A DNA stretch of 64,000 nt from contig QPMI01000099.1 of NCBI GenBank assembly GCA_004431415.1, positions 124,001 to 188,000 of the forward strand. The letters run 5' to 3'. This DNA comes from Cyanophora paradoxa CCMP329 (lineage: Eukaryota > Plantae > Glaucophyta). The notes beneath the pieces were generated by a model that was given only the letters and a program-made list of their open reading frames with translations, had not been told where the DNA came from and searched no databases. A program made the translations under genes and the position numbers. Shown here in pieces: positions 23,101 through 46,763 of the stretch (its first letter is position 1; each line of letters opens with the position of its first letter).

Positions 23101-25888
23101 CCGAAGCTCTCATTTCTGAACCCGAGCCACAAGAGTTAAGAATACGATCCGCGCAGCCGGCCGCCAAACGCGACGCAGCAACGCCGGGAGCTCCGCCAAT
23201 AATATTACGATTGCAAGTGCACTAAATGCAGGGTCGGCTGACGCTCTCACTTCCGAACCCAAGCCACTTGAATTAAGAATCCGAACCGTGCAGCCGGCTG
23301 CTGATTGCGACACAGGGACGGCCGACGCTCCAACGATATAAATATATTGCAACTTGGCAACTGCAGTTGCACTGAATGCAGGGTCGGCTGAAGCTTAAGA
23401 TCTCCACCCCCAACTCAAGCGACTGAAATTAAAGATTAGATCATTGCAGCCGGCCGCCGATCGCAACGTGGGGACGCCAGAAGCTCCGACGATTAATATT
23501 GCAATTGCATGTGCTTTAAATGCAGGGTCGGCCGAAGCTCTCATTTCTGAACCCGAGCCACAAGAGTTAAGAATACGATCCGCGCAGCCGGCCGTCGATC
23601 GCGACGCAGCAAAGCCGGGAGCTCCGCCAATAATATTATAATTACGATTGCAAGTGCACTAAATGCAGGGTCGGCTGACGCTCTCACTTCCGAACCCAAG
23701 CCACTTGAATAAGGAATCCGATCCGTGCAGCCGGCTGCTGATTGCGACACAGGGAAGGCCGACGCTCAAACGATATAAATATATTGCAGCTTGGCCACTG
23801 CAGTTGCACTGAATGCAGGGTCGGCTGAAGCTTAAGATCTCCACCCCCAACTCAAGCAACTGTAATTAAAGATTAGATCATTGCAGCCGGTCGCCGATCG
23901 CAAAGTGGGGACGCCAGGAGCTCCGACGATTAATATTGCAATTGCATGTGCTTTAAATGCAGGGTCAGCCGAAGCTCGCATTCCCGAACCCGAGCCACTA
24001 TTTTGTAGAATACGATCCGCGCAGCCGGCCGTCGATCGCGACATGGGGACAGCAGACGACCCAACGAGTTATATGACAATTGCTTGTGCTCTAAATGCAA
24101 GGCCGGCTGAAGCTCTCATTCCCGAACCCGAGCCACTATTATTTAGAATCCGATCCGCGCAGCCGGCCGTCGATCGCGACGTCGATACTGGCACAGCCGA
24201 CGCTCGGACGATTGATAAAATCATTGCAAGTACACTCAATGCCGAATCAACTTAAGCTCTCAATTTCGATCACGAGCCCCTAGAATTAAGAGATCGATCC
24301 GCGCAGCCGGCCGTCGATCGCGACGCAGCTGCAGCAAAGCCGGGAGCTCCGCCAATAATATTACGATTGCAAGTGCACTAAATGCAGGGTCGGCTGACGC
24401 TCTCACTTCCGAACACAAGCCACTTGAATTAAGAATCCGAACCGTGCAGCCGGCTGCTGATTGCGACACAGGGACGGCCGACGCTCCAACGATATAAATA
24501 TATTGCAACTTGGCAACTGCAGTTGCACTGAATGCAGGGTCGGCTGAAGCTTAAGATCTCCACCCCAACTCAAGCGACTGAAATTAAAGATTAGATCATT
24601 GCAGCCGGCCGCCGATCGCAAAGTGGGGACGCCAGAAGCTCCGACGATTAATATTGCAATTGCATGTGCTTTAAATGCAGGGTCGGCCGAAGCTCTCATT
24701 TCTGAACCCGAGCCACAAGAGTTAAGAATACGATCCGCGCAGCCGGCCGTCGATCGCGACGCAGCAACGCCGGGAGCTCCGCCAATACTATTACGATTGC
24801 AAGTGCACTAAATGCAGGGTCGGCTGACGCTCTCACTTCCGAACCCAAGCCACTTGAATAAGGAATCCGATCCGTGCAGCCGGCTGCTGATTGCGACACA
24901 GGGACGGCCGACGCTCCAACGATATAAATATATTGCAGCTTGGCAACTGCAGTTGCACTGAATGCAGGGTCGGCTGAAGCTTAAGATCTCCACCCCAGCT
25001 CAAGCAACTGTAATTAAAGATTAGATCATTGCAGCCGGTCGCCGATCGCAAAGTGGGGACGCCAGGAGCTCCGACGATTAATATTGCAAATGCCGCCGAT
25101 CGCGACGCAGGGACGGCCGATGCTCGAACGATCTATATTGCAATTGCATGTGCTCTAAATGCAAGGTCGGCTGAAGCTCGCATTCCCGAACCCGAGCCAC
25201 TATTTTGTAGAAACCGATCCGCGCAGCCGGCCGTTGATCGCGACGCAGGGACAACCGATGCTCGAATGCAGGGTCGGCTGACGCTCTCACTTCCGAACCC
25301 AAGCCACTTGAATAAGGAATCCGATCCGTGCAGCCGGCTGCTGATTGCGACACAGGGACGGCCGACGCTCCAACGATATAAATATATTGCAGCTTGGCAA
25401 CTGCAGTTGCACTGAATGCAGGGTCGGCTGAAGCTTAAGATCTCCACCCCAGCTCAAGCAACTGTAATTAAAGATTAGATCATTGCAGCCGGTCGCCGAT
25501 CGCAAAGTGGGGACGCCAGGAGCTCCGACGATTAATATTGCAAATGCCGCCGATCGCGACGCAGGGACGGCCGATGCTCGAACGATCTATATTGCAATTG
25601 CATGTGCTCTAAATGCAAGGTCGGCTGAAGCTCGCATTCCCGAACCCGAGCCACTATTTTGTAGAAACCGATCCGCGCAGCCGGCCGTTGATCGCGACGC
25701 AGGGACAACCGATGCTCGAATGCAGGGTCGGCTGACGCTCTCACTTCCGAACCCAAGCCACTTGAATAAGGAATCCGATCCGTGCAGCCGGCTGCTGATT
25801 GCGACACAGGGACGGCCGACGCTCCAACGATTTGTATTGCAGCTTGGCAACTGCAGTTGCACTGAATGCAGGGTCGGCTGAAGCTTAA
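14175..25888. repeat. Satellite array, block C, with higher-order structure
   Basis: Anchor spacings of 430/431, 437, 454/455, 712 and 718/719 bp. The 455-bp variant unit starts at 18363, 21696 and 25029 (3333-bp period). Confidence 0.97.
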
Positions 25889-26150
25889 AAAAAATGAGAG
25901 TACCCCCATCGGGGTGGGCCCGCCCTCTTTGCCACCCTCAACCCCCAAACCCACCCCTCACTCACCCACTCCAGCGCCTTCCCAGCCCTCATTCTTTCCC
26001 ACTCTCTCGCTACGTCTACCGCCCTTCTCTCCCTCTGGTCTACCTCCCCTTCCATCCAGCAACCACTAGGTAGTATCTAGTGTCTAGGTCGATCGATATT
26101 GCAAAACGATATAGCAGTGAATTGAGGCGGGCCCCCAAACGCGCCGGTCT
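25889..26150 (+). repeat. Left terminal inverted repeat of the virus
   Basis: AAAAAATGAGAGTACCCCCATCGGGGTGGG...AAACGCGCCGGTCT is the reverse complement of 36855-37114, with an imperfect middle part. Confidence 0.95.
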
Positions 26151-26274
26151 TTGAATCACCAACGGGTCACCGCAATTGAGGTTTCTCTTATTTTGTCATA
26201 AAGAGATCCCTTTCCAATATTGCTATGTGAAGTTGCGTTTGGAACAAGCAAAAAAATTGTGATATATACTTCCA

Positions 26275-29200
26275 ATGGACGTTACCCAGAATAATGCAGC
26301 GACTCGGCGCTTCCGGTTGGCCAGAATCAAAGACCAGATCGAAGCGCTCGCGATATCATTGTATAATCGACGCGTCATACATTGGGCCTTCAAAAATAAA
26401 TTGATTAGAATTTCAGCACAAGGCTCGAGAACACGTTTTGCAACGTTGGAAAAGTACGCTTCACTCTTGAACGAACTTGCAAGACTTCCTAGGTCAGCGC
26501 GTCCTGTGTCAGGTCGTCGACTAGAGCTAGCGATTGCTGAGGGCCAGGCCGACATTGTTCGAGGGTTCTCAGAATTACCTGAGGTTGACGGTGGAGATGA
26601 TGTTCAAATCAATGACAGCAATACGACTACAGCGCTTGACGGGCGATATGCGGAGTGGAAATACCAATTGCCTCGCGGTTCTGGCCGCGTAACCTCGATG
26701 CAAGCCCGATTTGAGAACAACGAACTTTTCAAACAGAACGCAATAGCATTCGTTAGCGCCCAGGTAAATCTTGCAGAGGCGGTAAGAATGGGCATTGCAC
26801 TACAAATCTCTGGATTAGCGGTATACAGAAAGCCAGAGACTGATACAACAATTGCAATCATTATTGAGCATCGCCGTTTCGATCGCATCGAGCCAGGGGC
26901 AAGCATCGAGACTGCTCTGCGCTCACAGCTGGAAGAACTAGACATTCTTGCGACAGAGAAAAGCAGGGATTCCTCAGTTTTCGACACATGGATACATCTG
27001 GTCTTTAAAACTGTGCGATACTTCCGCCGCATGGGTGGCCGTGGACGTAGGTTCACACTCCCGCGGTGGCTTGTGGAGAAGCAGGCACTCATCAATATCG
27101 ATGCTCCGAACAATGAATGCTTCAAGTATGCTGTACTTGCAGCTCAGCACGCGCTACGACCGGGCCAGGATTCACGCAGTGCTTGTCATTATCGACCGTA
27201 TGAGAGCTCTTTGGACTGCACTATGCTCACATTTCCCACCCCGCTAGATTCAAAGGTTTTCAAAAAGTTCGAGCAGGCTAACAACGTAAACCTATGTATT
27301 TATACGACAGCATTAGATGAACAGGACATTGTACCAATCCATATCAGCGCAGCAAAAGACGCAATACCAATCTTGTATGTACCTGCAGGCAGCGACAATG
27401 ATGTAGGGCATTATCTCTGGATCAAGAACATCTCACGTCTGTTTGGAAAACATGATTCTCCCGCCAAACACTATTGTCTTGCGTGTCAAACAGGTTTTAG
27501 CTCAGGTGCTGCGTTTGAAAATCATCTTAAATATGACCGTTGCCTCGATCGAGACGAGCATGCGAGAGATGTTCTGCCGAAAAAAGGAGCCCACATCCAG
27601 AAGTTTATTAACTATGAGTACTCAATCCGGCAACGTCTGGTCGGATATGCTGATTCAGAGACGATTACAATGCCAATTCCCTGCATTAGTGGAAAGACCG
27701 AAAAGAAAGGTGTGCATGTGATTGCTTCAGTCGGCTGTCTGGTTGTATCTTCGAAAGGTGAACAGTTTTGTTTCAAATACATGGGTTCGGAGAGCGAGGA
27801 CTGCGCTGAGAAGTTCGTGCAATGGTTGGACGAAATGGAACCACAATTTCGAGAGCTCTTGCGAGAGACTGCACCAATCCAGATTACTCAGGAAGAGGAG
27901 CAGCGTTTTCAAACGACGACCGAGTGCTACATGTGCAAGAACACGTTCAAGGATGCGAAAGACAAGCACCGTGATCACTGCCACGAATCTGGCCGATATT
28001 TCGGGGCTGCCTGCAGAGCTTGCAATCGACGCCGCGCGAAATCAGCTGCTGTTCCATTATTCTGGCACAACGGTCGAGGATTTGACTTCCACCTGCTCGT
28101 ACGTGCTCTAGCATCTGGCTATAACCGTCGTTTAGCAGCTTGGAAGGAGTTTCAAGCGCATGTCGAAAGCGAGTTTGAAAGCAAGTACGGTGGACGTGAG
28201 ATGACCCCAGAGCAGAAAAAGAAGGCGAAGAAGGGGCTCGAACGCCGACTCCGCCCACAGAGTCTCCTTTCGATAAAATTCGATCAGGTCTTTCAGAATA
28301 GCGAGCGAATTTCGCAGTTCAAGTATGGAATTTACGTTCTACGGGACTCGGCTCAGCACTTGAATGCGAGCTTGGACGACCTTGCAAAGGCTCTGCCCGC
28401 GGAAAAGAAGAAGATCACGCGCTCGCTGTATCTGGACGAGACTCGGTTCAAGCTGATGACTAGCAAAGGGATTTACCCTTATGATTACATGACGAGCTGG
28501 GCTCGCTTTCAGGAGTCTAAACTGCCTGCACGTCGTTATTTCAAAATCAGCTTAAACAGAAGAAATGCACGAAAGATGAGTACGCACATGCGAAGGCTGT
28601 TTGGCGAGAGCTCGGCTGCAGAACGCTATCAGGCTATACAATGGAGTATATGATGACAGATATCGCGTTACTAGCTGACGTGTTTGAAAACTATCGTGAT
28701 ACGTGTATTGAAACGTATGGCCTAGATCCTAGCTATTTTATGTCATCGCCGGGATTTGCTTGGCAGGCAGCACTTAAGCACACTGGAGTGAAGCTCGAGC
28801 TCTTTCACGAGGGGCAGCAGGATATGCACAGATTTATAGAATCCGGGATCAGGGGCGGAATCTCAATGATCTCAAAACGCTACGCACGAGCTGAGAACAA
28901 ATATTTGAGCATAAAGTTCAACAAGTACACCCACGCTGTTGAGCCTACAGTCTCACAGTCTACATGCATGTCTAACTACTACCGAACACACAAGGAATCG
29001 TGGCTCATGTACCTCGATGCAAACAACTTGTACGGCGTCGCAATGAAGCGCAAGCTACCCACAGGAGATTTCCGCTGGGATAAACTAGATCAAGACGTTG
29101 ATGTAATGCAGTACGTTGCAAGCCTTGACGCGGATGGAGCTCGTGGCTATGCTCTCGAAGTCGATATGTACATGCCTGAGCATCTCCATGACGAGTTCTC

Positions 29201-30332
29201 AGACTATCCGCTGGCCCCCGAACGGATGTGTGTGTCCAAGGAACACCTATCAAAGCGACAACAGGATATGATTAACGACGAGAAGCTTACCTCAGTTGAA
29301 CGAACTCCAAAGCTCGTTCCGAATCTGCTTCCAAAAAAGAATTATGTTGTTGATGGACGCTTGCTTCAGCTCTATACGTCACTGGGAATGATAGTAACCA
29401 ACATCCATCGGGTCCTATCGTACGAACAAAGCGCATGGCTAGGGCGTTTCATAGATCTCAATACTCAAAAACGTAAAGAATCGCAGTTCACATACCAGAA
29501 GGACCTTTACAAGTTGATGAACAACAGTGTCTTCGGAAAGACGATGGAGAACGTGAGAAAGCACTGCTTTTCAGAGCTTGTGACTTCGGGAGACCGTCTG
29601 GTGAAGATCAACAGCGAACCAAATCGGTTGAAGCAGGTGGTGATGTACGAAGAGAACCTTGTATTCGTTTCCAAGCGCAAAAGTGAGTACAATCTGAACA
29701 AACCTATCTACTGCGGGTTCGTCATCCTCGAACTTTCCAAGCTGCACATGTACCGCTTTTACTACCAGGTGCTCAAGCCGCTTTGGGGCCAGCGGCTGAC
29801 ACTATTAGGTACGGATACTGACAGTCTCATCATCGAGGTTCGCACCAAAGATATCTATGCTGATTTACGCTCAATCAAGCATGAGCTGGATGTTAGCGAC
29901 TACCCAGAGACACATCGATTCTTCGATGGCATGACAGCCGATGAGGTTCGAGCTCTACGATCGATGGGGAAAACTCCGGGATTATTCAAGGATGAGCTCC
30001 ATGGTCTGCAAATGACAGAGTGGATCGCTAACCGGCCGAAATCTTATTATTATTCGCGTGAAGATTCCACGGACAAGCAGGTATGCAAGGGTATTCAAAA
30101 GACGTACTACAACAGACTCACAAGGGATGTATTCTTCCGGTGCGTCTGTCCTAAAGAGGGAGAAAAGCAATCGTATGACATCAAAGGAATTCTCGGTTTC
30201 CGCTCGAAACTACATGAGATTTATTTACAACGAACCTCGCGTCAGGCTCTTCATCCCCTTGATACCAAACGCTTCCTCGAGACTGACGGGATCAACACCC
30301 GAGCGATTGGACATTATAAAAATCGCGCCTGA
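26275..30332 (+). CDS. polB: Protein-primed family B DNA polymerase (pPolB) polyprotein; one 1-bp frameshift at ~28543-28546
   Basis: Exonuclease motifs: YADSE, HNGRGFDFH, DIALLADVFE. Also KGIYPYDY. Polymerase motifs: YLDANNLYG, KLMNNSVFGK, TDTDS. Endonuclease-VII-like Zn insert CYMC..HRDHCH..GAACRACN. Polinton-type N-terminal segment LPRWL..ALINI..NNECF..GHY. ORFs 26275-28653 and 28641-30332 join if one A is added to TTCAAAAT, giving ..FKNQLKQKKCTKDEYAHAKAVW.. Confidence 0.95.
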
Positions 30333-30341
30333 TTTACAAAG

Positions 30342-31244
30342 ATGTACCAGATTACTGCGCCACCGGGTGTCTGGCAAATTGACGTATTATTTATTGGGAG
30401 ATTTCGCTTGTTTGCAGGAGTCGAGATTGCAACCCGCTTTGCTGTCGTCCGCAAGCTCGAGACCTTTAAGCAGCTTCCAAAAATGATTGCACAGCTGCCT
30501 GGAATCTGGGGTTTTTCTGGAGACAACGGTTTTAACACAGCAGCGATTCGGGCAATGGCTGCAGAGAACTCGTTAAAAATGCACACTGATGTGGCTAAGG
30601 ATGATCACATTTCAAAAGGAAACAAGCTGGGAATTATTGACAGGTTTGCGCGGACATTGCGAGCGTTGATCCAGGCAGACACCGAAGCACGTGGCTCACC
30701 GCATTTTCTGTCACGTTTGCCGGCAATTATTAAGGCGTACAATGAAACAGCCCACAGCTCTTTCGGCGGAGAGCACTCCCCAACATGGATGCGGGAAAAC
30801 TCGCAGGTTGCCGAGCAGTTGCATCAAGTGCGACAGCGACAGAACGATATCGAACGAGAGAATGCTAACTTGCCTAGACCAGGAACCGAAGTGCAAGTCC
30901 TGGAGCCGAAGCCAAGCGTGTTTGCAAAGGGTGTGGCGAAACCAAGCAAAGAGACGTATGTTGTTGCTGGCGCTGATAGAAATCGCATAAGGCTTATCAC
31001 TAAACAAGGCGTGGAGATTTCTAGGCGAGTAAAACCTTCCGAGTTTCGTGCTCCTCGTGAGCTGCCAGATCAGACAAAGATTAATCGCTCATCTGCTAGA
31101 GCAAAGCAAGAACGTCAGCTTATGCGCGAGGGATTGATTGAAACGAAAAAATACAGCGGCCAAAGCCGACAGGATCGTGAGCTAAAGAAGCTCGAGGTTG
31201 CAGGAGAGCCAAAGCTAAGAGCAGGGGCTAAGCAACGTCTCTAG
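30342..31244 (+). CDS. Retroviral-like (rve) integrase
   Basis: WQIDV..VEIATRF, SGDNGF, GIIDRFARTLR, KAYNETAHSS, followed by an SH3-like segment (PGTEVQVL..FAKG..SKETYVV) like that of Polinton integrases. Consistent with the short TSD. Confidence 0.88.
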   Translation: MYQITAPPGVWQIDVLFIGRFRLFAGVEIATRFAVVRKLETFKQLPKMIAQLPGIWGFSGDNGFNTAAIRAMAAENSLKMHTDVAKDDHISKGNKLGIIDRFARTLRALIQADTEARGSPHFLSRLPAIIKAYNETAHSSFGGEHSPTWMRENSQVAEQLHQVRQRQNDIERENANLPRPGTEVQVLEPKPSVFAKGVAKPSKETYVVAGADRNRIRLITKQGVEISRRVKPSEFRAPRELPDQTKINRSSARAKQERQLMREGLIETKKYSGQSRQDRELKKLEVAGEPKLRAGAKQRL

Positions 31245-31545
31245 CAAGGCATCTACGCGCAATTGCAGTCTTGTGGTACTCGCGGATCCGATCAGGATTC
31301 TCAGCTCGATACTTCGCTGTGATGGCAAGCTGTTTCAAGCGGTATGTTTCGTTTGAATGACGAAGCTTTCGATTACGCTCGGCATTCTTCCTTCTGCGCT
31401 CCGCTAGAATCTCTGGGGTGACCTCGATCGGTTTAGGCCCCTTCTTTTTCGGCTGGTATGGCTCCATTGTTAAAAGACGAACCTTAGGAGGTCGCCCACG
31501 TCCACGCTTTACCACAGTACAATCCGCAGTAATTGCAGAAGTCAT
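31228..31545 (-). CDS. Small basic DNA-binding protein with an AT-hook
   Basis: 105 aa with KRGRGRPPK AT-hook and a K/R-rich helical tail; ATG start; fits the compact viral gene packing. Confidence 0.65.
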   Translation of the reverse strand: MTSAITADCTVVKRGRGRPPKVRLLTMEPYQPKKKGPKPIEVTPEILAERRRKNAERNRKLRHSNETYRLKQLAITAKYRAENPDRIREYHKTAIARRCLARDVA

Positions 31546-31721
31546 TGCTCAGTTTGTCTCTCAATAATAAGACACATAAATCCTTTTAAGACAAATTAGC
31601 GCAACTTTTGGACGGCCACGCAAGCGTAGTCGTCAGACAATCAGACTCTCCTGCGGCCTGCGGAGCGCTGACTAAAAGATAATGCAATCTGTAGATGTAA
31701 CGAAAGCCGACTATTTTTTTA

Positions 31722-31934
31722 ATGGAACTTGAATTCGAAACGGTAGAGGAAGAGTTTAATCTCGAAGACTGCTGGCCTGGAAGAACTCACGAATCGCCTG
31801 ATCATCTGATTTCGTTCGGCATTTACAAGGGCACATCGTTCCTGTGGATTGCATCAGCAAAACCAGATTACACTGCTTGGTTGCTTAGGCAGGCTTGGCT
31901 ACCGGCTTTGATCGCGCTGCTTTCTTACGTGTAA
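31722..31934 (+). CDS. Small protein with FGxYKG..DYxxWL motif (DUF3820 / ExoX C-terminal-like)
   Basis: 70 aa; ISFGIYKGTSFLWIASAKPDYTAWLL resembles this short viral/phage domain. Confidence 0.55.
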   Translation: MELEFETVEEEFNLEDCWPGRTHESPDHLISFGIYKGTSFLWIASAKPDYTAWLLRQAWLPALIALLSYV

Positions 31935-32588
31935 AAACTTTGATAGAGCCGAAGTCACTCCAGACGATTTGTCAACAGAATAAACGCGGTCCGCGGTCGC
32001 AGCTTCATATATCAAAACCTGATACGAATGATTCAATTCAACGAAAAGACGCATTAGATCTGCTCGAGTCGCTCCGGCGTTGTATTCGTCGAAAACGCAG
32101 TTGAACTCTTTAACGTTTGAGAGAATTGATGAGAAACAGACGTACTCACAATTCCTTCGAACTGTAGGGCTGATTCCACAAAGACGTTGAGTGGTTACAA
32201 AAAGGCTCATGTTATAATGACGCCCACTAGTAAAAAGCTTTTGCATTAATCGGTCGCTGTGGACGTTCACAAGGTCATTATCGAGCAAATCATCTAGAAC
32301 GATTGCAATCTTGCGCTCATCTTTCTTGCGTCGCCTTTCTTTTTGTTGCTCTAGAAGACTCTCAACCAAAACTGGATCCCATTCTTCGTGAATATTGTTT
32401 GAGCGAGTCGTGTCGTCCCACTGTTCTGTAAATGCTGTGGTACTAAATACGAAGACGTCGTCTAGCTGCGGAGCTACTGCATTTAATACGTGTTTTACGT
32501 AGGTGCTTTTGCCCGAATTGGTGGGGCCGACAAACAAGAACCGTTTAGGCAGTTTTATTTCTGTAGGATCAAACAATTTGATATCCAT
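31899..32588 (-). CDS. A32-like (FtsK/HerA superfamily) genome-packaging ATPase
   Basis: Walker A GPTNSGKST, Walker B IAIVLDD, and the family motif LFTSGRHYNMSLFVTTQ..ISPTVRRN. Confidence 0.93.
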   Translation of the reverse strand: MDIKLFDPTEIKLPKRFLFVGPTNSGKSTYVKHVLNAVAPQLDDVFVFSTTAFTEQWDDTTRSNNIHEEWDPVLVESLLEQQKERRRKKDERKIAIVLDDLLDNDLVNVHSDRLMQKLFTSGRHYNMSLFVTTQRLCGISPTVRRNCEYVCFSSILSNVKEFNCVFDEYNAGATRADLMRLFVELNHSYQVLIYEAATADRVYSVDKSSGVTSALSKFLHVRKQRDQSR

Positions 32589-33818
32589 CTAGAAGTTACT
32601 TACCTTTAGAGTTGACATTTGATACGAGTTAATTACGAGAACATTGTGGCGCAGGACGTGGAAGTCGACAACTGCTGGCGCTGCGTTTGTGCAGCCGGTT
32701 ACAGTTAGCGAGCAGTAGCTGCTGCTGGAATTAAAGAAGTCTGTGTAGCCGAGGACAGCGTTATGCAGTGAGTCTTTGCCAGATTTCGAAAGCACAATCC
32801 CATAGACATTTCCGTCCTCGAAGCCAAGGGCTGAATTGCCAGTGGTTGCACCGCGGTATTGAGTTGGAATGTGATAGCAGCTCGAAACAAACCCTGATAT
32901 TGGCTTATTGCTGATGTCTAGAGTACGATTATTGTGCATGATCTCAAACGAATCGATTTTCAGCGCATTCCCGTTGCCAGCAAATGAATTGTGGTTGCGA
33001 GTGCCCAGGTGATTTGCATTTCGCACGGTCATCAGGATCGCGTGCACAAGGCCGCTGACGTTGGCAAGGGAGATTTCGACTGCATTCCCCGCGTCGTCAG
33101 TCTTTAACTGCCTTGAGCGCTTTGAAATAATCTCAGTGAAAGGAATTCGAATACCACCGCTCTCGTTTGCAGATTTAAGCATAGACTCAGCCTCTTCGCT
33201 AGGGATATTCACGAACTGGCAAACCAGGGCACAATCCGTTAGAGTTGCAACAGCACTAGCGACAGTTCCAACCACGCCAGCCGAACGGAAGTCAATTTCG
33301 ACGGTGGGCATGTCAGCCAGTGCGAGCAGCGGGAAGTACGAATTGTCCCAGAGCTGGGAGGGGATCTTTAGTACGTACTCGCGACTCGCATCGAGAATCT
33401 CAAGAGCCGCGTCCTTTCCAAAGCCGTAGCTGCTAGCAAAAGCCTGGGCGGATGCAACGCTATTATCGATGAGCGCGTTCACAGTAAGCCAGTCTCCGGG
33501 GATCACCATCTTGAAGGATCCATGAACAAAGCGCACGTTTTCAATAAATGCACCTGCGCCATTCGGCAGCACCGAGGCGGCCGCTCCGCCAGCGACGCTG
33601 ACCTTAAAGTATAGCGAGACACCGTTTAAAAGCTGCTTGCGCGGAAGGTCGAAAGCGGCAGTCTGCGCGAAGCCGTACGAGTTGCCTCGCGGACGGATCG
33701 TTTCAAGGAAAGGCTTGAACTTGGGGCTGACACCGACAGTGAGACCTGGGGATAGATAAAGCTCGCTTGAACCTTTGGTAGTGAGGAGCTCCTTTAGAGT
33801 TGTTCCTGCTTGCGCCAT
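32589..33818 (-). CDS. Putative double jelly-roll major capsid protein
   Basis: 409 aa, beta-rich, abutting the ATPase. N-terminal GFAQTAAFDLPRKQLLNGVSLYF, and YFPLLAL..VEIDF, resemble DJR MCP motifs of NCLDV/PLV type. Confidence 0.75.
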   Translation of the reverse strand: MAQAGTTLKELLTTKGSSELYLSPGLTVGVSPKFKPFLETIRPRGNSYGFAQTAAFDLPRKQLLNGVSLYFKVSVAGGAAASVLPNGAGAFIENVRFVHGSFKMVIPGDWLTVNALIDNSVASAQAFASSYGFGKDAALEILDASREYVLKIPSQLWDNSYFPLLALADMPTVEIDFRSAGVVGTVASAVATLTDCALVCQFVNIPSEEAESMLKSANESGGIRIPFTEIISKRSRQLKTDDAGNAVEISLANVSGLVHAILMTVRNANHLGTRNHNSFAGNGNALKIDSFEIMHNNRTLDISNKPISGFVSSCYHIPTQYRGATTGNSALGFEDGNVYGIVLSKSGKDSLHNAVLGYTDFFNSSSSYCSLTVTGCTNAAPAVVDFHVLRHNVLVINSYQMSTLKVSNF

Positions 33819-33862
33819 TTGCTATTATAGACCAGAAAATTTTCATGCATATTGTTGTAAAG

Positions 33863-34740
33863 ATGAAGCTCCGCGTAAATGTCGATTCTAGGGACCGTTT
33901 CGAAGGCACGTCCTCAAATTTCAAGATCAATCTCCCAAGGCCCCTCGTTAATGTGAAGTCGGTGCGAGTCGATTCGCTAGAGCTCTTCCATAACATGTTC
34001 AACCTGTCAACACAAGCCGCAATTATCACCGGCACCCTTGATCCCTCTGGCGTTGAGAAAACGCGTGCTAATGCTTTCAAGCCCGGAGTCTATACGCCAA
34101 CCTCCCTTGCAAACTATCTAAGTACGCTGCTTAAAACTCAGCAGTATAGTTACGGTGGAACTACTTATCAGCGCAAGTTCGTCGTTCAATTTGAAGAGAT
34201 CTCAATGCGGCTTAGGTTCCTGTCCGAAGCGGATTTTATTTTGAGTTTCACATCGGCCGAACTAGCGAACCTGCTCGGGTTTGCGAAGACTCTCAGTGAC
34301 CTTTCCAGTGAGCTTGACACACCTGAGACAATCGATGGCGTGCAATATTCGTACGAGCTGTTCAGCGATATGCCAGTTGATCTACTTTATCACACGTATT
34401 TGTTCCTGTACATTCAGCAGATCAAAGGCTCGATCTTGACACTTAACCCTATACAACGGGCTCGATCGCAAAGATTCACATCGACTCAAAATTCGGGGAG
34501 CTCATCAAGTTCACATCTGAGGATCGTGTTCCCGTCACAGGCTTCGATCGAAACGCTGAGCTGTCTGAACTTGACATATCGCTGCGCTATCATAATGGAA
34601 CAGACGCTGTCACAAACACGGAGTTCTCGTTCGTGCTAGAGTTCGATATCGAGGATGTCTCTTACACGTCTGCTGCTGCTAAATCCGCAATCAAGAATGC
34701 AGCCAGCGAGTACGTCCCCTTCGACAGATCGTTCGCATAA
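33863..34740 (+). CDS. Putative minor capsid (penton, single jelly-roll) protein; 1-bp frameshift at ~34445
   Basis: N-terminus VDSRDR..SNFKINLPRPLVNVKSVRV. After the shift the frame reads IAKIHI..LSELDISLRYHNG..EFSFVLEF to TAA at 34738-34740. Both ends are typical of penton-like proteins. Confidence 0.75.
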
Positions 34741-34765
34741 GTTTTTTCCCACTACTAGTTAAAAG

Positions 34766-35440
34766 ATGTCGACAGACAAGCAGTCTCGGCTGCGCACTCC
34801 GCGAAAGAAGTCGACAGACATGCAGTCTCGGCTGCGCACTCCGCAGCTTGAAGTCGCTTCCAGCCCTACTAAGAAGAATCACATCGAGTTCTTGAGTGGT
34901 GATACTAGTGCTTACCCGCTAGTCCGTCGCGCTGGTGGCGGTGAGGGTGCATCCAACGACTATGCTCTTACCGCCGACGAGAACGCTATTCTTGATAAGA
35001 TCCCGAATTCGCGGACTAAGAAGACCAAGACTAGCAAACTGAAGGATACTGACGATGGGCCGCTGTACATCTCAGAGACGGCTAATCGTAGCAGGTATTT
35101 CATTAAAACTGTGACCGGTCTTAAAACAGTTTCAAAGAAGCGAGCTAGTGATCTTATAGCTGGCATCGCGGCTGAGACTATGATGGAGAACAAGGTTTTA
35201 AATGAACCTATTACTAAGACCAAGATTGATAAGAAGGTCTCTCCTCCTGCAGCTGCTGTTCCTGCTAAGACGATCGTTGCGATCCCCGATGTCGATGAGA
35301 ATGCTAGCGAATTACCCGTAGCTAACGCATCAATCCTGCGCATCGCCTCTAGCAGTGCTGATCCTGTCGGGCCGGCGATCGAGTACAAGCCAATGCTGAG
35401 CGGCTTCACTAAGCTAGGGCTCCGGCATCGCTGGGAGTGA
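34766..35440 (+). CDS. Hypothetical viral protein, basic, with duplicated N-terminal STDxQSRLRTP repeat
   Basis: 224-aa ORF preceded by AAAAGATG, like the other viral starts; a direct repeat with a 42-bp period at its 5' end. Confidence 0.7.
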   Translation: MSTDKQSRLRTPRKKSTDMQSRLRTPQLEVASSPTKKNHIEFLSGDTSAYPLVRRAGGGEGASNDYALTADENAILDKIPNSRTKKTKTSKLKDTDDGPLYISETANRSRYFIKTVTGLKTVSKKRASDLIAGIAAETMMENKVLNEPITKTKIDKKVSPPAAAVPAKTIVAIPDVDENASELPVANASILRIASSSADPVGPAIEYKPMLSGFTKLGLRHRWE

Positions 35441-36031
35441 CCGCTCCATAGCTGACTACATGTAAACGCATACGCAAATACATTTATATTCGATTTATAG
35501 TACTGCTAATAACACTACAGTAGGCGATCTGACAAGGCACAACGTTTTGACCCCGTAAACCGTGGTTTCTCGCGACAGAGATCGGATTGGACTGAGCCGC
35601 TGTGTATGCTATAGTTTCATGATCTATAATTACGAAATCCGCAGCAAGCGCGTTCAGACGCCGCAGCGTTGATGAGATCTTTAATCGTCGGGTTTGACGA
35701 TTAAGATGTATGGCGGCTTGACCTCAGCACAGAAGCGCGCCAGGCGCCGGCCAAAGCGTACGCATGCTAAGTATGATGCGGAAGAACGATAAAGCAAGTC
35801 TCCAGCGCTGGGCACCGCAGCAGTTCCGAGCTTGTGAACGTTTCGCCCTGAGACGTTCACCCTAGCCGGCTCGAGCTTGACGGCTAAATCTCCGGCTTGG
35901 TGTTCGGCTTGAAGCTTGAGGTTAGACTGCGGTTAGACCGTGGTTCGGCTGCGGTTAGAGCGGTGTCGTCGGCGGTTATACGCGTGTGGTTAGACGCCTT
36001 TCGTACGTGTGAGCGCGGTTAGCACGGTTAG

Positions 36032-36535
36032 ATGAACGAAAGGACAAGTTTCTCAGAAGCTTCCTCGACTTCGGCCGACTTGGCAGGAGCCCCAGAAGCT
36101 GCAGCTAGCACGTCCACGGTGGAACGCCAGTACAAGACATCACCCGCGCAGCGCGCAGCTGTAGCCAGGTATCGCGCGACAGAGGCAGGCAAAGTGACGA
36201 GAGAGCGCGAGAAGGAGAGCCGCCGCACTCGAGCGCGGAAAGATAAAGCTATGCCATCCAGCGACAAGCAGCTTGCAACATCGCGCGCAGCCGTACCTGC
36301 AGGCCCGCGCATTCAGAACCAACTCCAGGCGCATCACGTCCAGGCACAGATCATAGCCTTCGAGCAGCTCTTCTCGGAGTGGTTCCCTGCAGCAGCATCG
36401 TACTTCAACGATGTCTTAGCACTCAAGCAATGTCTTTGGAACAAGGGCTGCAAGGTTCGCCCGGCGGCCTCCGCTCGCTTGACGCATGCACATGGACAGT
36501 GGCTGATTGCTTGCAACTTTGCAGAGCATGGATGA
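36032..36535 (+). CDS. Hypothetical viral protein with a basic helical segment
   Basis: 167-aa ATG ORF; YKTSPAQRAAVARYRATEAGKVTREREKESRR looks like a DNA-binding helix. Confidence 0.5.
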   Translation: MNERTSFSEASSTSADLAGAPEAAASTSTVERQYKTSPAQRAAVARYRATEAGKVTREREKESRRTRARKDKAMPSSDKQLATSRAAVPAGPRIQNQLQAHHVQAQIIAFEQLFSEWFPAAASYFNDVLALKQCLWNKGCKVRPAASARLTHAHGQWLIACNFAEHG

Positions 36536-36710
36536 ATACAACATCATGATGGAGCGCCTGGAAAGCACCATGGGCTCGTTCAAGCAAGCGCGCGCGTCTC
36601 TTCTTACCTACCTTCAACAGGCCCAGCTGCAGCAGCAGGCGCAGGTGCAGGCGCAGGTGCAGGCGCAGGTGCAGGCGCAGGTGCAGGCGGAGGCGCATGC
36701 GCAGGCCTAG
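36528..36710 (+). CDS. Small Q/A-rich viral protein (QAQV repeats)
   Basis: ATG at 36528 overlaps the previous stop; contains a 12-bp tandem repeat CAGGCGCAGGTG. Confidence 0.4.
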   Translation: MDEYNIMMERLESTMGSFKQARASLLTYLQQAQLQQQAQVQAQVQAQVQAQVQAEAHAQA

Positions 36711-36854
36711 GCGCAGGCGCAGGCTTAGCTATAGCCGCAGTTAACACCTAGATAGACCTCAAGCTAGAGCTGGATTGCGTTTCGGCAGTTAGCTTCTCTG
36801 TACACATCAATCACGTCTAGCTTATTCCGATAGAGAGCTCTAGGAGGTCTCTGC

Positions 36855-37114
36855 AGACCGGCGCGTTTGGGGGCCCGCCTCAATTCACTGCTATATCTTT
36901 TGCAAGATCGCTTGGTCTAGACGTTAGATATTACCTAGCGGTTGCTGGATGGAGGGGAGGTAGACCAGAGGGAGAGGAGGGCAGTAGACATAGCGGAGGG
37001 GTGGAAGAGAATGAGGGCTGGGAAGGCGCTGGAGTGGGTGAGTGAGGGGTGGGTTTGGGGGTTGAGGGTGGCAAAGAGGGCGGGCCCACCCCGATGGGGG
37101 TACTCTCATTTTTT
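36855..37114 (-). repeat. Right terminal inverted repeat of the virus
   Basis: Reverse complement of 25889-26150. Confidence 0.95.
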
Positions 37115-37214
37115 AGCTTAAGATCTCCACCCCCAACTCAAGCAACTGTAATTAAAGATTAGATCATTGCAGCCAGCCGCCGATCGCAAAGTGGGGACGC
37201 CAGGAGCTCTGACG
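37115..37214. repeat. Satellite array, terminal block D
   Basis: AGCTTAAGATCTCCACCCCC...GCCAGGAGCTCTGACG continues the interrupted unit, then the array ends. Confidence 0.93.
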
Positions 37215-38655
37215 TTAACGTTGCAGCGCCAGAAGCGTTGCGGCCGGAAACTCTTAATTATAAGCGACACTGTGACATGTACAGATCCGGATCCGCGGCG
37301 CTAGCTCATCTGCGGCCAGTTCGATCAGAAGTCGGTGGCAAACAGGGCGCCCTGCCCGCTCGCAGCTCACCAGGCCAGGCAAGCGAGATATGCCAGAAAA
37401 CGCGGCCGGCGAACTCGAGGGTGACAGATCTAGAGCGCTAGCTGAGCTCATCTGCGGGCTATAGCTAGCTAATTATAATCTGCGGCCAGTTCGATCAGAA
37501 TTCGAAGTCGACAACGAACAGGGCGCCCTGCCGGCGCGCGGCTCACCTGGCCAGGCAAGCGAGATCGATATCTTCCGAACGCCACGCGTACGCTGCCCGC
37601 GGCCGAAGGCAGTTAACGTTCGATCGGCAGTTCGATCGGCAGTTCGATCGGCAGTTCGATCGATATCAGAAGTCGGTGGCGAATCGAACAGGCAAAGGCT
37701 AGGCCAAAACAGCGGCCGGCCGCGGCGGAGCGGCTAGTTGTAACAGGTAAGCAGTAGGCTAGAGCAGCGGCCGGCTGGAACGGAGCGCGGCCGGCGGAAC
37801 GGAGAGTGTACATGTTTAGCAGGCCAAAGCAGTGGCCGCGGCCGGCGGCGCGGAGCGTCTTAAGCAGGCCGAATCAAACAAAAGCAGGCTGCGAGGCCAC
37901 CGGCCTATGACATTGGCGCACCTGCGAACTTGCGTCGAGCCGATCGAAAGGATGGTGGAGAGTTGGAAAGGGGTACAGGATCACTGCTAAACGACCGTGG
38001 GCCACGGTCGTTCGGCAGACATGGGTACCGGATGACCAACTCAGTGTGACTTGGCAACGCGTAGGCAGGCTAGTACGTATACGGTTAAATGACAAAGAGT
38101 TAAACTGAGCTCGAGCGTTCAAGCACAACATACCGCAATTACGGTCATGCACGACATGCATATGCGCACGTTCAAGCACGATATCCGCAAGCTCCCGGAG
38201 CTCCGAATCCTCCGATAGCTATATATAGGAGGCCGACTCAGATGGCTGACTAGTACTGGATATCGATCCGACGCGACGGGCGGCTAGACAACTGAGGGGG
38301 TGACGAGCTTGACACTATAGCTAAGGGCGGCGGGTCAGAGCGGTGGAGACCTAAGGGAGGGGTGGGGCGCTAGCTATAGAGAGTGGCGGCGACTGAGGGT
38401 GGCGGGGAGCTCGAGGGCGGCGGGGCGGAGCAATGAGGGCCTGCCAGGCTGAGACGGGGTGACAAAGGGGACTTTCATAACACAGCGAACAGTACTAGTA
38501 CGTATACTAGTAGCGCTAGCAGGGGAGCATATAGAGTACGGGCGGCTAGACTACTGAGGGGGTGACGATCTTACTGGCCATATTGCATGGTGTGGCCAGC
38601 CAGCAGATCGGTGCATGCGATCAGCCCGCGCGCGGGGCCGGGCCGGGAAGCGGCT

Positions 38656-38996
38656 GCCGATGCTCGAACGATTTATATTGCAATTGCAGTGGCACTGAAT
38701 GCAGCTGCAGGGTCGGCTGACGCTCTCACTGAGTCACTTCCGAACCCAAGCCACTTGAATAAAGAATCCGATCCGTGCAGCTGCAGGCGCGCGGCCGGCT
38801 GCTGATTGCGACACAGGGACGGCCGACGCTCCAACGATTTAAATATATTGCAACTTGGCAAATGCATGCAGTTGCACTGAATGCAGGGTCGGCTGAAGCT
38901 TAAGATCTCCACCCCCAACTCAAGCAACTGTAATTAAAGATTAGATCATTGCAGCCGGCCGCCGATCGCAAAGTGGGGACGCCAGGAGCTCTGACG
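38656..38996. repeat. Isolated degenerate satellite copy
   Basis: About 2.5 monomers carrying several short palindromic insertions; ends at the same junction as block D. Confidence 0.9.
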
Positions 38997-40702
38997 TTAA
39001 CGTTGACAGTGACTTGACAGTACTATACCGTGCCACACTAAATTAACAGCCCGTTTATTAACAGGTTATAAAATCCGGCCCTCCCTTATAATTAGGCGAA
39101 ATAACAGACTCTGAGAGTCCCAAATTAACAGACTGTGAAAATTCGGGCTTGTATATGGCCGGGGCGGTAATATTGAGGGGTAGGTTGTATAATATTGAGG
39201 GGTAGGTTGTATATGGGTCGACTGAACGGCGGGAGTCCGGATCCGGGACCGGGCTGGGACCGTCTACTAGCTACTACTAGCTAGTACTATACGGCGGCTA
39301 GCACTAATCTACCCGGTAGCTTGCCGGCTACACGCTGACGAAGGCGCACTATAGCTATATAGCTAGCCGGCTCGTATCTCGTAGCGGGTGATCATGAAAA
39401 GTTATCGCGATCGCGATCGCCGACTACGTACGTATACGTATACGTATATATACCCTTAAGCTTGCACATTAACGTTAATTATAACGGCATTATCGCGCGT
39501 TGACGTCGGGTAATCGATCCGGCAACGTTAACCGTTGAACGTTACGTTAACAAGAAACGATCGATATATTATATATATAATTAGGGGAATATCGATCGAT
39601 CACCGCGTTTGTTAATTTAACGGTGATATATATAATTTTTTTTAATTAACAAGAAACGATCGATATATTAGCTACAGGGGAATATCATGCATGCATGCAC
39701 CGCGTTTGTTAAATTAACGGTGATATATAATTAATATATATCGCGGTGAATATATAATGTTAACTTGAATGAAGAACTCCCTAATTATAATTAATATATA
39801 TCGCGATATATATAGCTATACAAACATACAACAAGGGGTACAGACATACAAGGGGGGGTACACATTACATCAGGTCGCGATCGCCGATCGCGAAAACCTC
39901 CATCCTAGCTCAGGGCCGATGTGGAAGCACGCTCAGCGCACTTGTTAACATCCATAGAAGATATATCCAAGGCCTTACTATCGATTGCGAGCGCCCGGTC
40001 GCGACGGCCAGCACACCGCACACCGGCGCACAGACGCTTGCCCACACGCAAGCACCAAGTCAGCTAAGACCCGGCTAGGACCCAGTTACGGAGCTTTTAC
40101 GAAACCACGTACCCCGGCAGAATCTCGTTTCAATCGTACGTCCTTACGGAGATTTTAACAATCGGTACTGCAGTTACCGGAGCTTTTATCAATCGGGGAT
40201 CACGACAGCTCGAAAGTCCGACAGGTACTTCTTAAACACTATTGGATGGAAGCAGGTACTACTCGATTTACGGGTCACGAGTCGGCAGTATAGCCTCTGG
40301 TCTCTTCTTCCCTTCGGTCAGAATTGAGACCCGAGGCTGATGTATACGCACAAATCACGACCGCGATTCGCGAATCGCGAATCGCGATTCGGCAAGCTTA
40401 AGGTATCCGATGGGACCGATGATCAGTACTACGGTACTAGCATGTACGGTACACTGTCACAGTGTATACAGCTGCAGCCTGCAGCTGCATGCAGCCAGGC
40501 AGCAGCCTGCAGCCTGCAGCCTGCGGGCTGCAGACTTCACTGCGGCAGCTGAACGTGTACGTACTGTAGAACAAGTTAATTTAGTACAGTTCTAAAGTTC
40601 TACAGTATACAGCTGAGTATATACGTAGTACCGTACGGCCCGGACGGTACGGGTCCGTAGGACTCCGTACGGACCGGTACGGTCCGGGTCCGTGCCTACG
40701 AA

Positions 40703-42999: not shown

Positions 43000-45900
43000 C
43001 TAGTACCGAGCCCGCCTCCGCTTCGACTTGCGGCCCTGCGCAACCGAAAGCTGGCCTCAGGCCCGGGGTACGGGAAAGCCGCAAGCGCCAACGGCGTACC
43101 CCGTCGCCCTCGGCGTCGGATCCCTCCCCCTTGACCTCCGATTTGATCTCCGATTTGATCTCAGCCTTGACATCGGGGGGGTACGCGTCCTCCTCGGCCT
43201 TCGACTCTTGCTTTGGAAGGGGCGACTTTCGGTCCTCGTCCTCTGCTTGCTGGGCGTGAGCGGAAGGGGAAAGAGTCCGCGGGGGGTACGCCGCGCACCG
43301 GCGGGGGGACCGGGGGTATACGGCTCGTCCAACGGGAACGGAAGGGCGGAGGGCGGCCGCGCGGGCGCCGCAGGCATCGGTCCCGAAGGGACGCACTTCC
43401 GATGCACGATGGGCCCTTCGGAAGGGGGGTACGGTGTCAGTCCAATGGTCGGATGTGGCGAGGGGGTGGAGGGGGGGGGGGATACCGCGTGGGGCGTTGG
43501 GGGCCGCCGTCGGGTCCAGAGGGCCGGTCCGGTCCACCGACAGGTACAGAGCGGAGGGGTACATCCAAACCTGGCCGGGGGCGCGTCGGACAGGCAGGAG
43601 GGGCGTAGGATTGCCGGGGGGTACGGCGCGCACTTCGTTCGCCTCGTCCCACACAGTCTCGAAGCGCTCCCCGCAGATCGCGCAGGCCTCCTGCAGGGGG
43701 TACAGACGCTCAGGAAAAAAGGAAGAAGAAAGGTGGCCGGGTCCGATTCGAACCTGCGACTCGTCGGCGGGTACGCTGGGCTCGGGCTCCTGAGGGGCCT
43801 CGCCGGCGCCTTCCCCCCCCTTGTCGCCCTCCCCCCCCTCGAAGAAGACAGAGGCCACTGCGGCGCGGGCGGGGTCAGGGGAGGGGTGGTCCGAGTTGGA
43901 CAAGGCCAGGGAGAGGAGGGAGGAATCGCGTACCCTGCTTGTCGCCGCGCCGCGCCTCCCGCCATTCGACCCACTCCGACGCGGGAAGGAAGTACTGACA
44001 AATAATCATCAGCATAGGAGGGGTACAACGCGCGGAGGGGGTAGGGGGTAGCACCTGGCGCGAGAACCGCTTCTCGTCCTTCCGCTGGTGCTCCCGGGTA
44101 CGCATCGCGAAGTGCCAGTCCATATGTTCCTGGGGTACCGGGTCACGGGGGGTACGTGCCGGGGAGGGGAGCGGGGCCGGCGGGGGTACCGTCATCTGGG
44201 CATCCGTGTACATGCGGAAGCCGCACTGGGAGCACTGCCGGGGATACCGCGTCATCGGGGCGCGAAGGGGGGGGGGGGTATGCAGGCGGGGGTACCTGCT
44301 TCGGGATGTCGCGGTACAGCGATGCAACGATCTCCTCCTCGCGGCGCCGCAGCGCGTCGGCTCGGAACTCGACCTAAAAATAGCTCAGCGGGGTACGGGG
44401 GGACTTAGGAAGGAAGGGGTGGCGCACCATGAGAGCGAGCTTGTAGGCGGTGGCGGGGTGTAGGAGGGGCGGGACGCGTCCGGGGCGGGGGCGGGGGCGG
44501 CGGGGGCGGGGGCGGCGGGGGGCGGCGGGGCCATGAGCCCGAGCTGGGCGAGGGACGAGAAAAGGTCGGAGGCGTTCACGTTCGGCCCGAGGCCGGGGCC
44601 GCCGCCGGCGGGGGCGCCGGGGCCCATCGGGGGCATGCCCGGGCTGGGGACGGGGAGGGAGAGCGGGGCAGGCGCGGGGCCTGGGCCGGGCCCGTGGCCT
44701 GGGCCGTGGCCCGGGGCGGGCGCCGGCTGCGTGAGGAGCTCCATCAGAAGCGGCATGGCGTTGCTGGGGTCGAAGTGGCCCGAAAGGAGCGGCCCCGCAA
44801 GGGCCGAGAGGGCCGCCGGGAGCGACGCGCCCGCCCCGGCGCTCTGGAGCGAGGGGAGCAGGTCCGACAGCTGCTGCAACTGCTGCGCCGAGAGGCTGTC
44901 CACCAGCGTCTTTAGTACGCCGAGGGCCTCCCCGGGTACGCCATCCGGGGGCGGCAGCGGGGGCGGGGCGGCCGGCGGGGGCGGCGCGACGGGCAGCGGC
45001 GGCGTCGGAGCCACCGCGGCCATCACGAGCGCCTGCGCCTGCGCCTGCAGCTGCGCCTGTGCCTGAGCCTGCGCCTCCACCAGTGCGATCTGCTGCGCCT
45101 GCAGGAGCTGCGCGGGGGGTACGGGTCGGTTCGAGGCGGGGGGGGGAGGGGGGGGGACGCAGGGGGTACGCGCACCTGGAGCTGCTGGGCCTGCAGCACG
45201 GCCTGCTGCTGCTGCATCTGCATCTGCGCCGCCGCCGCCTTCGGGAGACGAACAAGTCAGAGGACGGGTACGATTCAATCTAAGCTGGAGGGGGGGGGGC
45301 GAACCTGGACGGGGGTAAGGCCGGCCATGAGGCCGGGGCCCAGCGGCCCCGCGGGCCCCGCGGCTCCGAGGGGTCCCGCTGAGAGCGCCCCAGGGCCCAT
45401 GAAACCGGACAGCTGCGGGGCGTGAGCCGGCGGGGGGTACGCGAGCGACGCGGCGAGGAGGGGTACCTGCGCCATGGCGAGCGCGCGGTGCTGTGCGAGC
45501 GCAGCGCCGTCGGAAGCGGAAGAGCCGGCCCCGCGGGAGCGGGGGTGCGCGGGGCTGGAGGGGCCCCTGCGGGAGTGGCCGGAGCGGGGGCCGGAGGACG
45601 CGCCGGGCGGGGGCGGCCCGCGGGAGCGGGAGGAAGAGGAGGAGGCGGAGGAGTGCTGGGCGGAGCGCGGCTGCGCGCGGCAAGAAGGGGCGAGCGAGGA
45701 AAAGGAAAGGAAGTAAGGAACGGGAACGGAGGAAGAAACGCGGAAGTCCGCACCGCTTCGGAGGAGCGGGCCGGGGGAAGATCGGGGGCGCGGCCGTTCG
45801 AGGGCGCCTGCAGGCCCGGACCACCGACCGCGGCTTGCTGCGGCTGCGACGCAGCGACCACCCGAGGGTTCACGTGCACTTCCGAGGCGCCCGGCGGTGG

Positions 45901-46706: not shown

Positions 46707-46763
46707 TGCACTCGTACCCCCAGCGCGGTCCACCCCCACTTATCCAAAGCAAAGCAGTGCCAG

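Follow-up and report, generated by a model that had tools for sequence, protein, structure and literature searches.

A compact endogenous Polinton-like virus integrated in satellite DNA of Cyanophora paradoxa

What kind of mobile element interrupts the satellite DNA on contig QPMI01000099.1 of the glaucophyte alga Cyanophora paradoxa CCMP329 (assembly GCA_004431415.1), and does it depart from the viruses and transposons already described? We analysed 64,000 nucleotides of this contig (positions 124,001 to 188,000 of the forward strand; hereafter the window, whose own numbering is used throughout). A sequence-only reading had proposed here an 11.2-kb endogenous Polinton-like virus (PLV) with terminal inverted repeats (TIRs) at its ends and had regarded its gene set as unusual. 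Our analysis recovers the two ends and the five core genes named in that reading, a DNA polymerase B of the protein-primed type (pPolB), an rve integrase, an A32 ATPase, a major capsid protein (MCP) and a penton, and adds a frameshift in pPolB, a likely vOTU domain and four small genes, one of them spliced. We interpret the locus as a compact, recently mobile PLV that is transcribed in the nucleus, is probably present in about ten copies, likely copies itself, likely owes its reinsertion to the rve integrase and would fill its capsid without a maturation protease, a reading to which we give a probability of roughly 0.7.

Ends of the element

The element occupies positions 25889-37114 (11,226 bp) and is bounded by inverted arms. 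The TIRs form a 262-bp pair with 92.4% identity (E 4e-105) that is perfect over the first 107 bp; they begin with A6-TGAG, as had been read from the sequence, and their outer end is AAAAAATGAG. Immediately outside them lies a target-site duplication (TSD), which is AGCTTAA (7 bp) if each end of the element has six A/T and AGCTTA (6 bp) if seven A are counted to the left end. The uninterrupted target, GAAGCTTAAGATCT, is found 26 times in the satellite of the window. The element core has a G+C content of 44-52%; that of the satellite is about 53%, and far out on the right flank it reaches 80%.

Polymerase and integrase

The pPolB gene is interrupted by a frameshift near 28542. When the break is read as X the gene encodes 1352 residues without a stop, and both halves align, across the break, to single open reading frames (ORFs) of 1217-1320 aa in relatives. 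Pfam gives no polymerase name to this protein, and relatives were therefore collected by pPolB motifs, which yielded 113 loci (from the metagenomes, 80 kept of at least 546 matches); the polymerase of one of them, L001, matches DNA_pol_B_2. The protein consists of a predicted terminal-protein region, a vOTU domain, an exonuclease with an endonuclease VII insert (Endonuclease_7, E 2e-7 in Pfam) and a palm, with domain roles taken from 10.1101/2024.03.18.585575. Ten catalytic positions, comprising vOTU Cys282 and His379, three exonuclease motifs and three polymerase motifs, agree with all 45 full-length relatives. Judging from motif position and the published description, the vOTU segment is likely a cysteine-protease domain, though not one of the capsid-maturation type.

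Identity of pPolB to any relative does not exceed 45%, and the palm is 36-41% identical to those of L004-L006, relatives with classical Polinton MCPs. In the phylogeny that the sequence-only reading had proposed as a check (FastTree, 79 rows, with duplicates and loci with fewer than 430 palm residues omitted), the branch of the element is long and lacks a supported sister.

The integrase aligns to that of L001 (tblastn E 8e-16), a protein that matches Pfam rve, while its match to HIV integrase is weak (E 0.057). A profile of the integrase N-terminal domain finds nothing in the element's 220 frames of at least 30 aa, and the idea that this domain is encoded in another frame was rejected (best E 4.6). 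The integrase ORF lies in the same frame as pPolB, with one TGA and 9 bases between them (30330-30342), such that read-through would fuse both; the shared frame may be chance.

Capsid module

The 409-aa product had been put forward as an MCP candidate that should prove to be a double jelly-roll. Among 1.84 billion representatives it has four relatives at E 0.001 or better, 26-30% identical, and the single named one is a C. paradoxa protein. A model built with these four relatives (pLDDT 63, pTM 0.71) superposes on PBCV-1 chain 8h2i_bC with Z 30.6 (rmsd 2.8, 341 aligned), followed by faustovirus (28.3), PRD1 (18.8), Sputnik (17.5) and mavirus (16.8). Foldseek gives E 2e-17 to iridovirus and PBCV-1, and 5e-21 in BFVD. 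On this model the protein is a double jelly-roll capsid protein, and the candidate passes the check that had been set for it.

Sequence comparisons were run in several collections. A word-based search recovered no MCP among 7996 candidates and no ATPase homologue among 207, and the MCP alignment found P0004 itself only. Scans of viral contigs with the C-terminal half of pPolB, the ATPase and P0001 gave nothing, nor did a first metagenome scan; PDB sequence searches returned nothing for the MCP profile or pPolB, and a phage collection was likewise empty. None of the 113 pPolB-motif loci carries a close MCP, the best being L025 at E 0.002.

The penton had been recognised from the motifs VDSRDR..LP..NV and FSFVLEF; these lie in the first and second pieces, respectively, of a gene with a frameshift near 34446, whose corrected extent is confirmed (Table 1). 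With a profile grown from relatives, the penton ORF is the sole match among the 220 frames (E 3.4e-9), and continuing the reading across the break raises its score to 35.8 bits, from 28.4 with the first piece. The penton piece folded alone has a pLDDT of 36. Penton and MCP are divergent, with a 44-bp AT-rich gap between them, and the MCP stop adjoins the ATPase start (32589-32605, minus strand). The last codons of the MCP hold the element's sole perfect match to the splice donor AG-GTAAGT, and the reads gave no evidence of its use.

The remark that no adenain-like protease, helicase or tyrosine recombinase is recognisable was borne out. A Pfam scan of 64 frames of at least 60 aa (57 and 7, in separate scans) gave no protease, helicase or recombinase above cut-off. 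Because Pfam alone found only two of five control proteases, custom profiles are the stronger test; these recover 23 protease ORFs in the relatives' loci, and on the 220 frames of the element their best values for an adenain-like protease were E 2.0 and 3.2. A helicase was rejected, the sole Walker A motif in six frames being that of the ATPase, and a simple motif pattern for tyrosine recombinases found nothing.

Copies in sequencing reads

Of 24 runs listed, which come from a single organism and 18 studies, 20 contain between 63 and 70% of the element's words; none of the listed holders is given as RNA. Contigs of four of the 24 (X1, X2 and X14, which are DNA, and X21, a probable RNA run) were aligned to the element. 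Neither frameshift appears in the deep contigs of any of the three DNA runs, and near 28542, 34446 and 31906 these contigs show, at full depth in all three, a one-base indel relative to the window. The breaks are therefore peculiar to this copy or arose in its assembly; frameshift artefacts are frequent in assemblies of this kind (PMC10120064).

Core contigs have a median depth 8.3-9.2 times that of low-depth contigs near-identical to this copy, in the rows selected for comparison. On the question of copy number raised in the sequence-only reading, this depth suggests about ten similar copies. Depth drops over the integrase (30312-31113) and over a right-hand segment (35525-36727), where a deep contig shows 47 differences in 579 bases; the copies are mosaic in these modules. 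Positions 35709-36664 match exactly at low depth, and thus few copies share this segment. X21 covers 7 of 30 bins and no core gene, coverage that provides no evidence of silence.

Small genes and a probable spliced gene

The 105-aa basic protein has no Pfam or PHROG match. Its RGRGRPPK motif is one that we take to be AT-hook-like, and to judge by its sequence the protein likely binds DNA. The 70-aa ORF overlaps the end of the ATPase gene with its own end, and reads in all three DNA runs show an indel near 31906. The 224-aa K/S/T-rich product, without a Pfam, PHROG or relative-locus match, is possibly a virion core protein, which is a guess.

Beside the right TIR lies what is likely a GT-AG-spliced gene. 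Splicing joins a basic exon to a Q/A-rich exon and leaves the frame open to a stop at 36711. One contig of X21 (depth 102) skips the intron, and the DNA contigs of X1, X2 and X14 cross 36455-36524 without a gap. A spliceosomal intron indicates nuclear transcription for at least one gene. We found no report of a spliced PLV gene in the literature searched.

Table 1. Features of the element and its insertion site, in window coordinates
Feature	Position	Strand	Basis or remark
Left TSD, AGCTTAA	25882..25888		7 bp; 6 bp if the final A is the element's
Left TIR, 262 bp	25889..26150	+	A6-TGAG start; 92.4% vs right TIR
pPolB	26275..30332	+	Two frames, 26275-28653 and 28521-30332; frameshift near 28542
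rve-type integrase, 300 aa	30342..31244	+	tblastn to L001; D14-D61-D100, without N-terminal domain
Basic protein, 105 aa	31228..31545	-	Sequence; RGRGRPPK motif
70-aa ORF	31722..31934	+	FGxYKG motif; ExoX-like_C E 0.18, under cut-off
A32-like genome-packaging ATPase, 229 aa	31899..32588	-	Pox_A32 E 2.5e-11 (Pfam)
Double jelly-roll MCP, 409 aa	32589..33818	-	Fold model and structure matches
Penton (minor capsid protein), 292 aa with X at break	33863..34740	+	Two frames, frameshift near 34446
224-aa K/S/T-rich ORF	34766..35440	+	Sequence; no known family
Spliced gene, 202-aa basic protein with Q/A-rich tail	36032..36711	+	70-nt GT-AG intron 36455-36524
Right TIR	36855..37114	-	Inverted-arm and alignment comparison
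Right TSD, AGCTTAA	37115..37121		Followed by about 100 bp of further satellite

The surrounding satellite

The satellite that hosts the element has a 138-bp unit and higher-order units of 430-454 bp. It extends over window positions 41-25888 and about 38650-39000, is very deep in the reads, and has overlapping palindromic 6-mers at the element's target site in each higher-order unit. It is possibly centromeric DNA. The array collects insertions. A GC-rich non-LTR retrotransposon lies at 1457-about 10050 in several frames, with endonuclease (E 5e-8), reverse transcriptase (E 6e-16) and RNase H (E 1e-9) matches. A third insertion, at about 12490-14170, carries a 171-bp tandem duplication (99% identical) and has no further match inside the window. 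Farther right are host-like exons with a cytochrome P450 match at 49856-50924 (plus strand, E 1.7e-4) and others at 45278-46739 (minus strand) that may belong to a Pcf11/CID-domain gene, the tested piece of which gave no Pfam match. An Rfam search of 25000-40000 found no match.

Proposed life cycle and alternative explanations

The steps proposed here go beyond the anatomy of the element, and we infer them from its gene content. The genes would be expressed by host RNA polymerase II and the spliceosome, because no transcription enzyme is recognisable in the element and a GT-AG intron interrupts one of its genes. A freed linear genome would be primed at its A6 ends by the terminal-protein domain of pPolB, which the vOTU domain would cut free, and would be replicated by the intact exonuclease and palm domains with no helicase. 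The integrase would then insert the ends into host DNA at cuts staggered by 6-7 bp, in this case within a satellite that also holds retroelements. MCP, penton and A32 ATPase would build and fill a particle, with packaging optional, and the basic, Q/A-rich product of the spliced gene may act as a regulator of the latent copy.

Several points weigh against this interpretation. Particles, free genomes and excision are predictions from the gene content, and the terminal-protein domain is a predicted one. The copy as assembled has two broken core genes, pPolB and the penton, and its TIRs, perfect at their outer ends, have diverged farther in (92% alike). Only 13 residues precede the first catalytic Asp of the integrase, versus 32-216 in the 36 measurable of 39 relatives, and the third catalytic residue is Asp, where relatives have Glu (34 of 39), Asn (4 of 39) or Asp (1 of 39). 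With the N-terminal domain missing and Asp in place of the usual Glu, the integrase may have little or no activity. Read depth does not equal copy number, and the estimate of ten assumes a single-copy baseline. Splicing is seen in a single contig, which has 4 mismatches to the element and comes from a single run that is guessed to be RNA. Confidence in the MCP model is moderate, with pLDDT below 50 in 129 of 409 residues, and the identity between this MCP and a published one (see below) was judged by eye.

The alternative that survives best, unlikely as we consider it, is a helper-dependent, virophage-like PLV that stays silent, is induced by a giant virus, is helped by it in replication and perhaps protects the host. 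An element without transcription enzymes would fit such a life, and giant viruses are required by several PLVs that lack the protease, such as Gezel and the Tetraselmis PLVs (10.64898/2026.06.19.733378). The sequence TCTA, which is the late motif of mavirus and Cafeteria roenbergensis virus (CroV) (PMC8547959), occurs in AT-rich DNA 9 nt upstream of the MCP start. However, this 4-mer is weak evidence and is not near the starts of six other genes inspected, the MCP is not of the virophage type (no Sputnik_MCP match; hhalign 0.8%), and the intron points to the nucleus as the site of transcription for at least one gene. Helper dependence is compatible with the self-copying, nucleus-transcribed PLV that we favour.

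It is improbable, in our view, that the element descends from a larger Cyanophora PLV as a shrunken, decaying or non-autonomous form, one that lost genes and the N-terminus of its integrase and was moved, if at all, by the enzymes of fuller relatives. Its size below the 14-40 kb range, the trimming of its integrase with the D-D-D triad, and the pair of frameshifts found here would suit such a derivative, as would the lower read depth over the integrase and 35525-36727, where copies differ; the 366 C. paradoxa MCP copies on record could supply helpers. Yet the core genes are packed with gaps of 0-44 bp, all pPolB catalytic residues are kept, the breaks are absent from deep contigs, and another copy's MCP is identical over 370 residues.

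Least probable is a capsid module from small Nucleocytoviricota-related viruses (Zora, Zephyr, Mriya-like) that acquired a Polinton polymerase-integrase pair: the best fold matches are MCPs of nucleocytoplasmic large DNA viruses (NCLDVs), most of the Atlas neighbours at 0.98 belong to Nucleocytoviricota and 12-18% of members carry Capsid_N, and Zora and VC218 often encode rve, but identity to NCLDV MCPs is 7-16% with no NCLDV capsid Pfam match, NCLDV folds are also the best matches of ordinary Polinton and PLV MCPs, the 64 frames scanned with Pfam hold no HUH or VLTF match, the Zora, Zephyr and Mriya-like groups measure 15-45 kb, and the faint hhalign lean is towards the capsids of pPolB and rve PLVs, L025 (21%) and L040-type (8%).

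A bolder extension of the favoured reading, which we regard as improbable, would make the element a near-minimal self-replicating integrating virus with a double jelly-roll capsid. It would represent a glaucophyte-centred, class-level lineage of about 11 kb with five core genes, a D-D-D integrase without N-terminal domain, a preference for the host satellite as a refuge and, in an exchangeable cassette by the right TIR, a spliced gene that regulates latency, and it would be inducible to particles in an alga that can be cultured.

Earlier records of the family

A C. paradoxa MCP from record QPMI01000594.1 is listed in Table S2 of Bellas 2023, with a 96.9% HHpred match to an ascovirus MCP (PMC10120064). 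By eye it is identical to residues 27-396 (370 residues) of the element's MCP, with an unlike N-terminus. A second close MCP adjoins it in that table, which also holds P0002 (27% identical). Table S4 gives 366 C. paradoxa MCPs in two clusters (272 and 94; numbers 21 and 29 by our own column count) that are marked 'new' and bear no group name, and the main text does not mention Cyanophora (PMC10120064). Cyanophora PLVs are also in the set of PMC12220804, where cryptophyte PLV clusters commonly have rve and rarely a protease, and adintovirus-like PolB and integrase relatives were noted in C. paradoxa (PMC8502044). One QPMI01 element is discussed in 10.64898/2026.10.13.758929, and the available part of 10.64898/2026.06.19.733378 mentions neither Cyanophora nor glaucophytes. 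In the literature searched we found no gene map of the element's family; the annotations of endogenous viral elements from Bellas 2023 and the preprint supplements may hold one.

These records bear on the proposal of a minimal, possibly undescribed lineage. The small size stands, as does an MCP outside the groups tested; 'undescribed' does not fit an MCP that is already in Table S2. Its capsid cluster is already catalogued, as 'new', and no named group that we tested matched the MCP.

Features that had been taken as surprising prove to be ordinary. The MCPs of Polintons and non-Gossevirus PLVs are reported to resemble NCLDV capsids as well (PMC10120064), and the Polinton MCP, PY, was itself identified through PBCV-1 VP54 (PMC4028283). 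Gossevirus is the sole major PLV group with a core protease (10.64898/2026.06.19.733378), and a protease is identifiable in 74% of Polintons (PMC4028283). The combination of pPolB with rve is the usual pairing, as pPolB correlates with DDE integrases (10.64898/2026.10.13.758929). AGT/AG ends, together with a 6-bp TSD and the lack of introns, are described for vertebrate Mavericks (PMC8097293), and therefore the absence of such ends in an alga is no anomaly.

Elements of this basic kind, the host alga and the capsid have thus been published before, and what is gained is a better-defined model and not a new category. Virions of integrated pPolB and rve elements are so far unobserved according to 10.64898/2026.06.19.733378. 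A family that is small, has several copies, seems intact and resides in a culturable alga would offer a simple system for studying particle release, protease-less maturation and the need for a giant virus, and the trimmed integrase and spliced gene are concrete, testable oddities.

Comparison with known systems

The element has the features by which PLVs are recognised, a double jelly-roll MCP, an A32 ATPase and penton, and TIR-bounded integration with a TSD, and its identification as an endogenous PLV holds. Its 11.2 kb lie under the 14-40 kb surveyed for such elements (PMC10120064).

Maverick-Polintons share with it a pPolB of the same type, rve, A32, MCP, penton, TIRs and TSD. They differ in size (15-20 kb; PMC4028283), in encoding adenain and in their AGT/AG repeats, where the element has A6 ends. 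The element also has a trimmed D-D-D integrase and an intron, and vertebrate Mavericks have none (PMC8097293). Of the features of Polintoviricetes it thus has pPolB and rve, and lacks adenain, the MCP of the clade and AGT/AG ends. Neither its MCP nor the four MCP relatives match PF21738, on which classical MCPs score E 1e-41 or better. With shallow profiles, hhalign gave 0.28% for its MCP against four classical Polinton MCPs, and 98% for the controls L010 and L101. In Tlr, rve is likewise present and the protease absent (PMC4028283).

Gosseviruses (GKS1) and endogenous mavirus-like elements (EMALEs) are, like this element, integrated in protists, bounded by TIRs and often equipped with pPolB and rve; the lengths of EMALEs range over 5.5-21.5 kb, and their TSDs measure 1-9 bp (PMC8547959). 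Unlike the element, they have a core protease and other MCPs, and neither the MCP nor the protease expected of Gossevirus and Virophaviricetes was found here. The hhalign value was 0.13% against three Gosse-like MCPs, so labelled by resemblance to the GKS1 sequence, and 0.78% against virophage MCPs; Sputnik_MCP has no match in the element and scores E 4e-41 on L002. The pPolB of mavirus is without most of the exonuclease and needs a helicase (10.1101/2024.03.18.585575), whereas that of the element keeps its exonuclease. As to NCLDVs, we do not read the fold matches as a sign of membership; such matches are common to Polinton and PLV MCPs.

The reduced set of MCP, penton and ATPase is that of the protease-less PLVs (Aquintoviricetes and unplaced groups; PMC12220804), and the protease-less morphogenetic module of Aquintoviricetes is present in the element. 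With the same shallow profiles, the MCP leans faintly, at values none of which is significant, towards L025 (21%), the L040 group (8%) and the L009 group (3.6%). The protease profile has no match in the fetched stretches of seven pPolB comparison loci (L009, L021, L025, L030, L040, L044 and L065); as these loci are not shown to be complete, the absence is only suggestive. Integrase-like ORFs occur in six of the seven, with none in the stretch of L025, and no TIRs were found in the five loci tested. The short metagenomic contigs L040 (1-12890) and L044 (1-11833) each carry pPolB, an integrase-like ORF, an ATPase and an MCP, with no protease match and no TIRs found. In another, Polinton-like locus, one ORF (L032, 6201-7595) has phospholipase A2-like and ADP-ribosyltransferase Pfam matches.

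Judged by gene content, the element is Polinton-like in replication and integration and resembles protease-less PLVs in assembly, and by the available tests it falls in neither named class. What sets it apart is its length of 11.2 kb, an MCP in no testable named group, a D-D-D integrase without an N-terminal domain, and a GT-AG-spliced gene.

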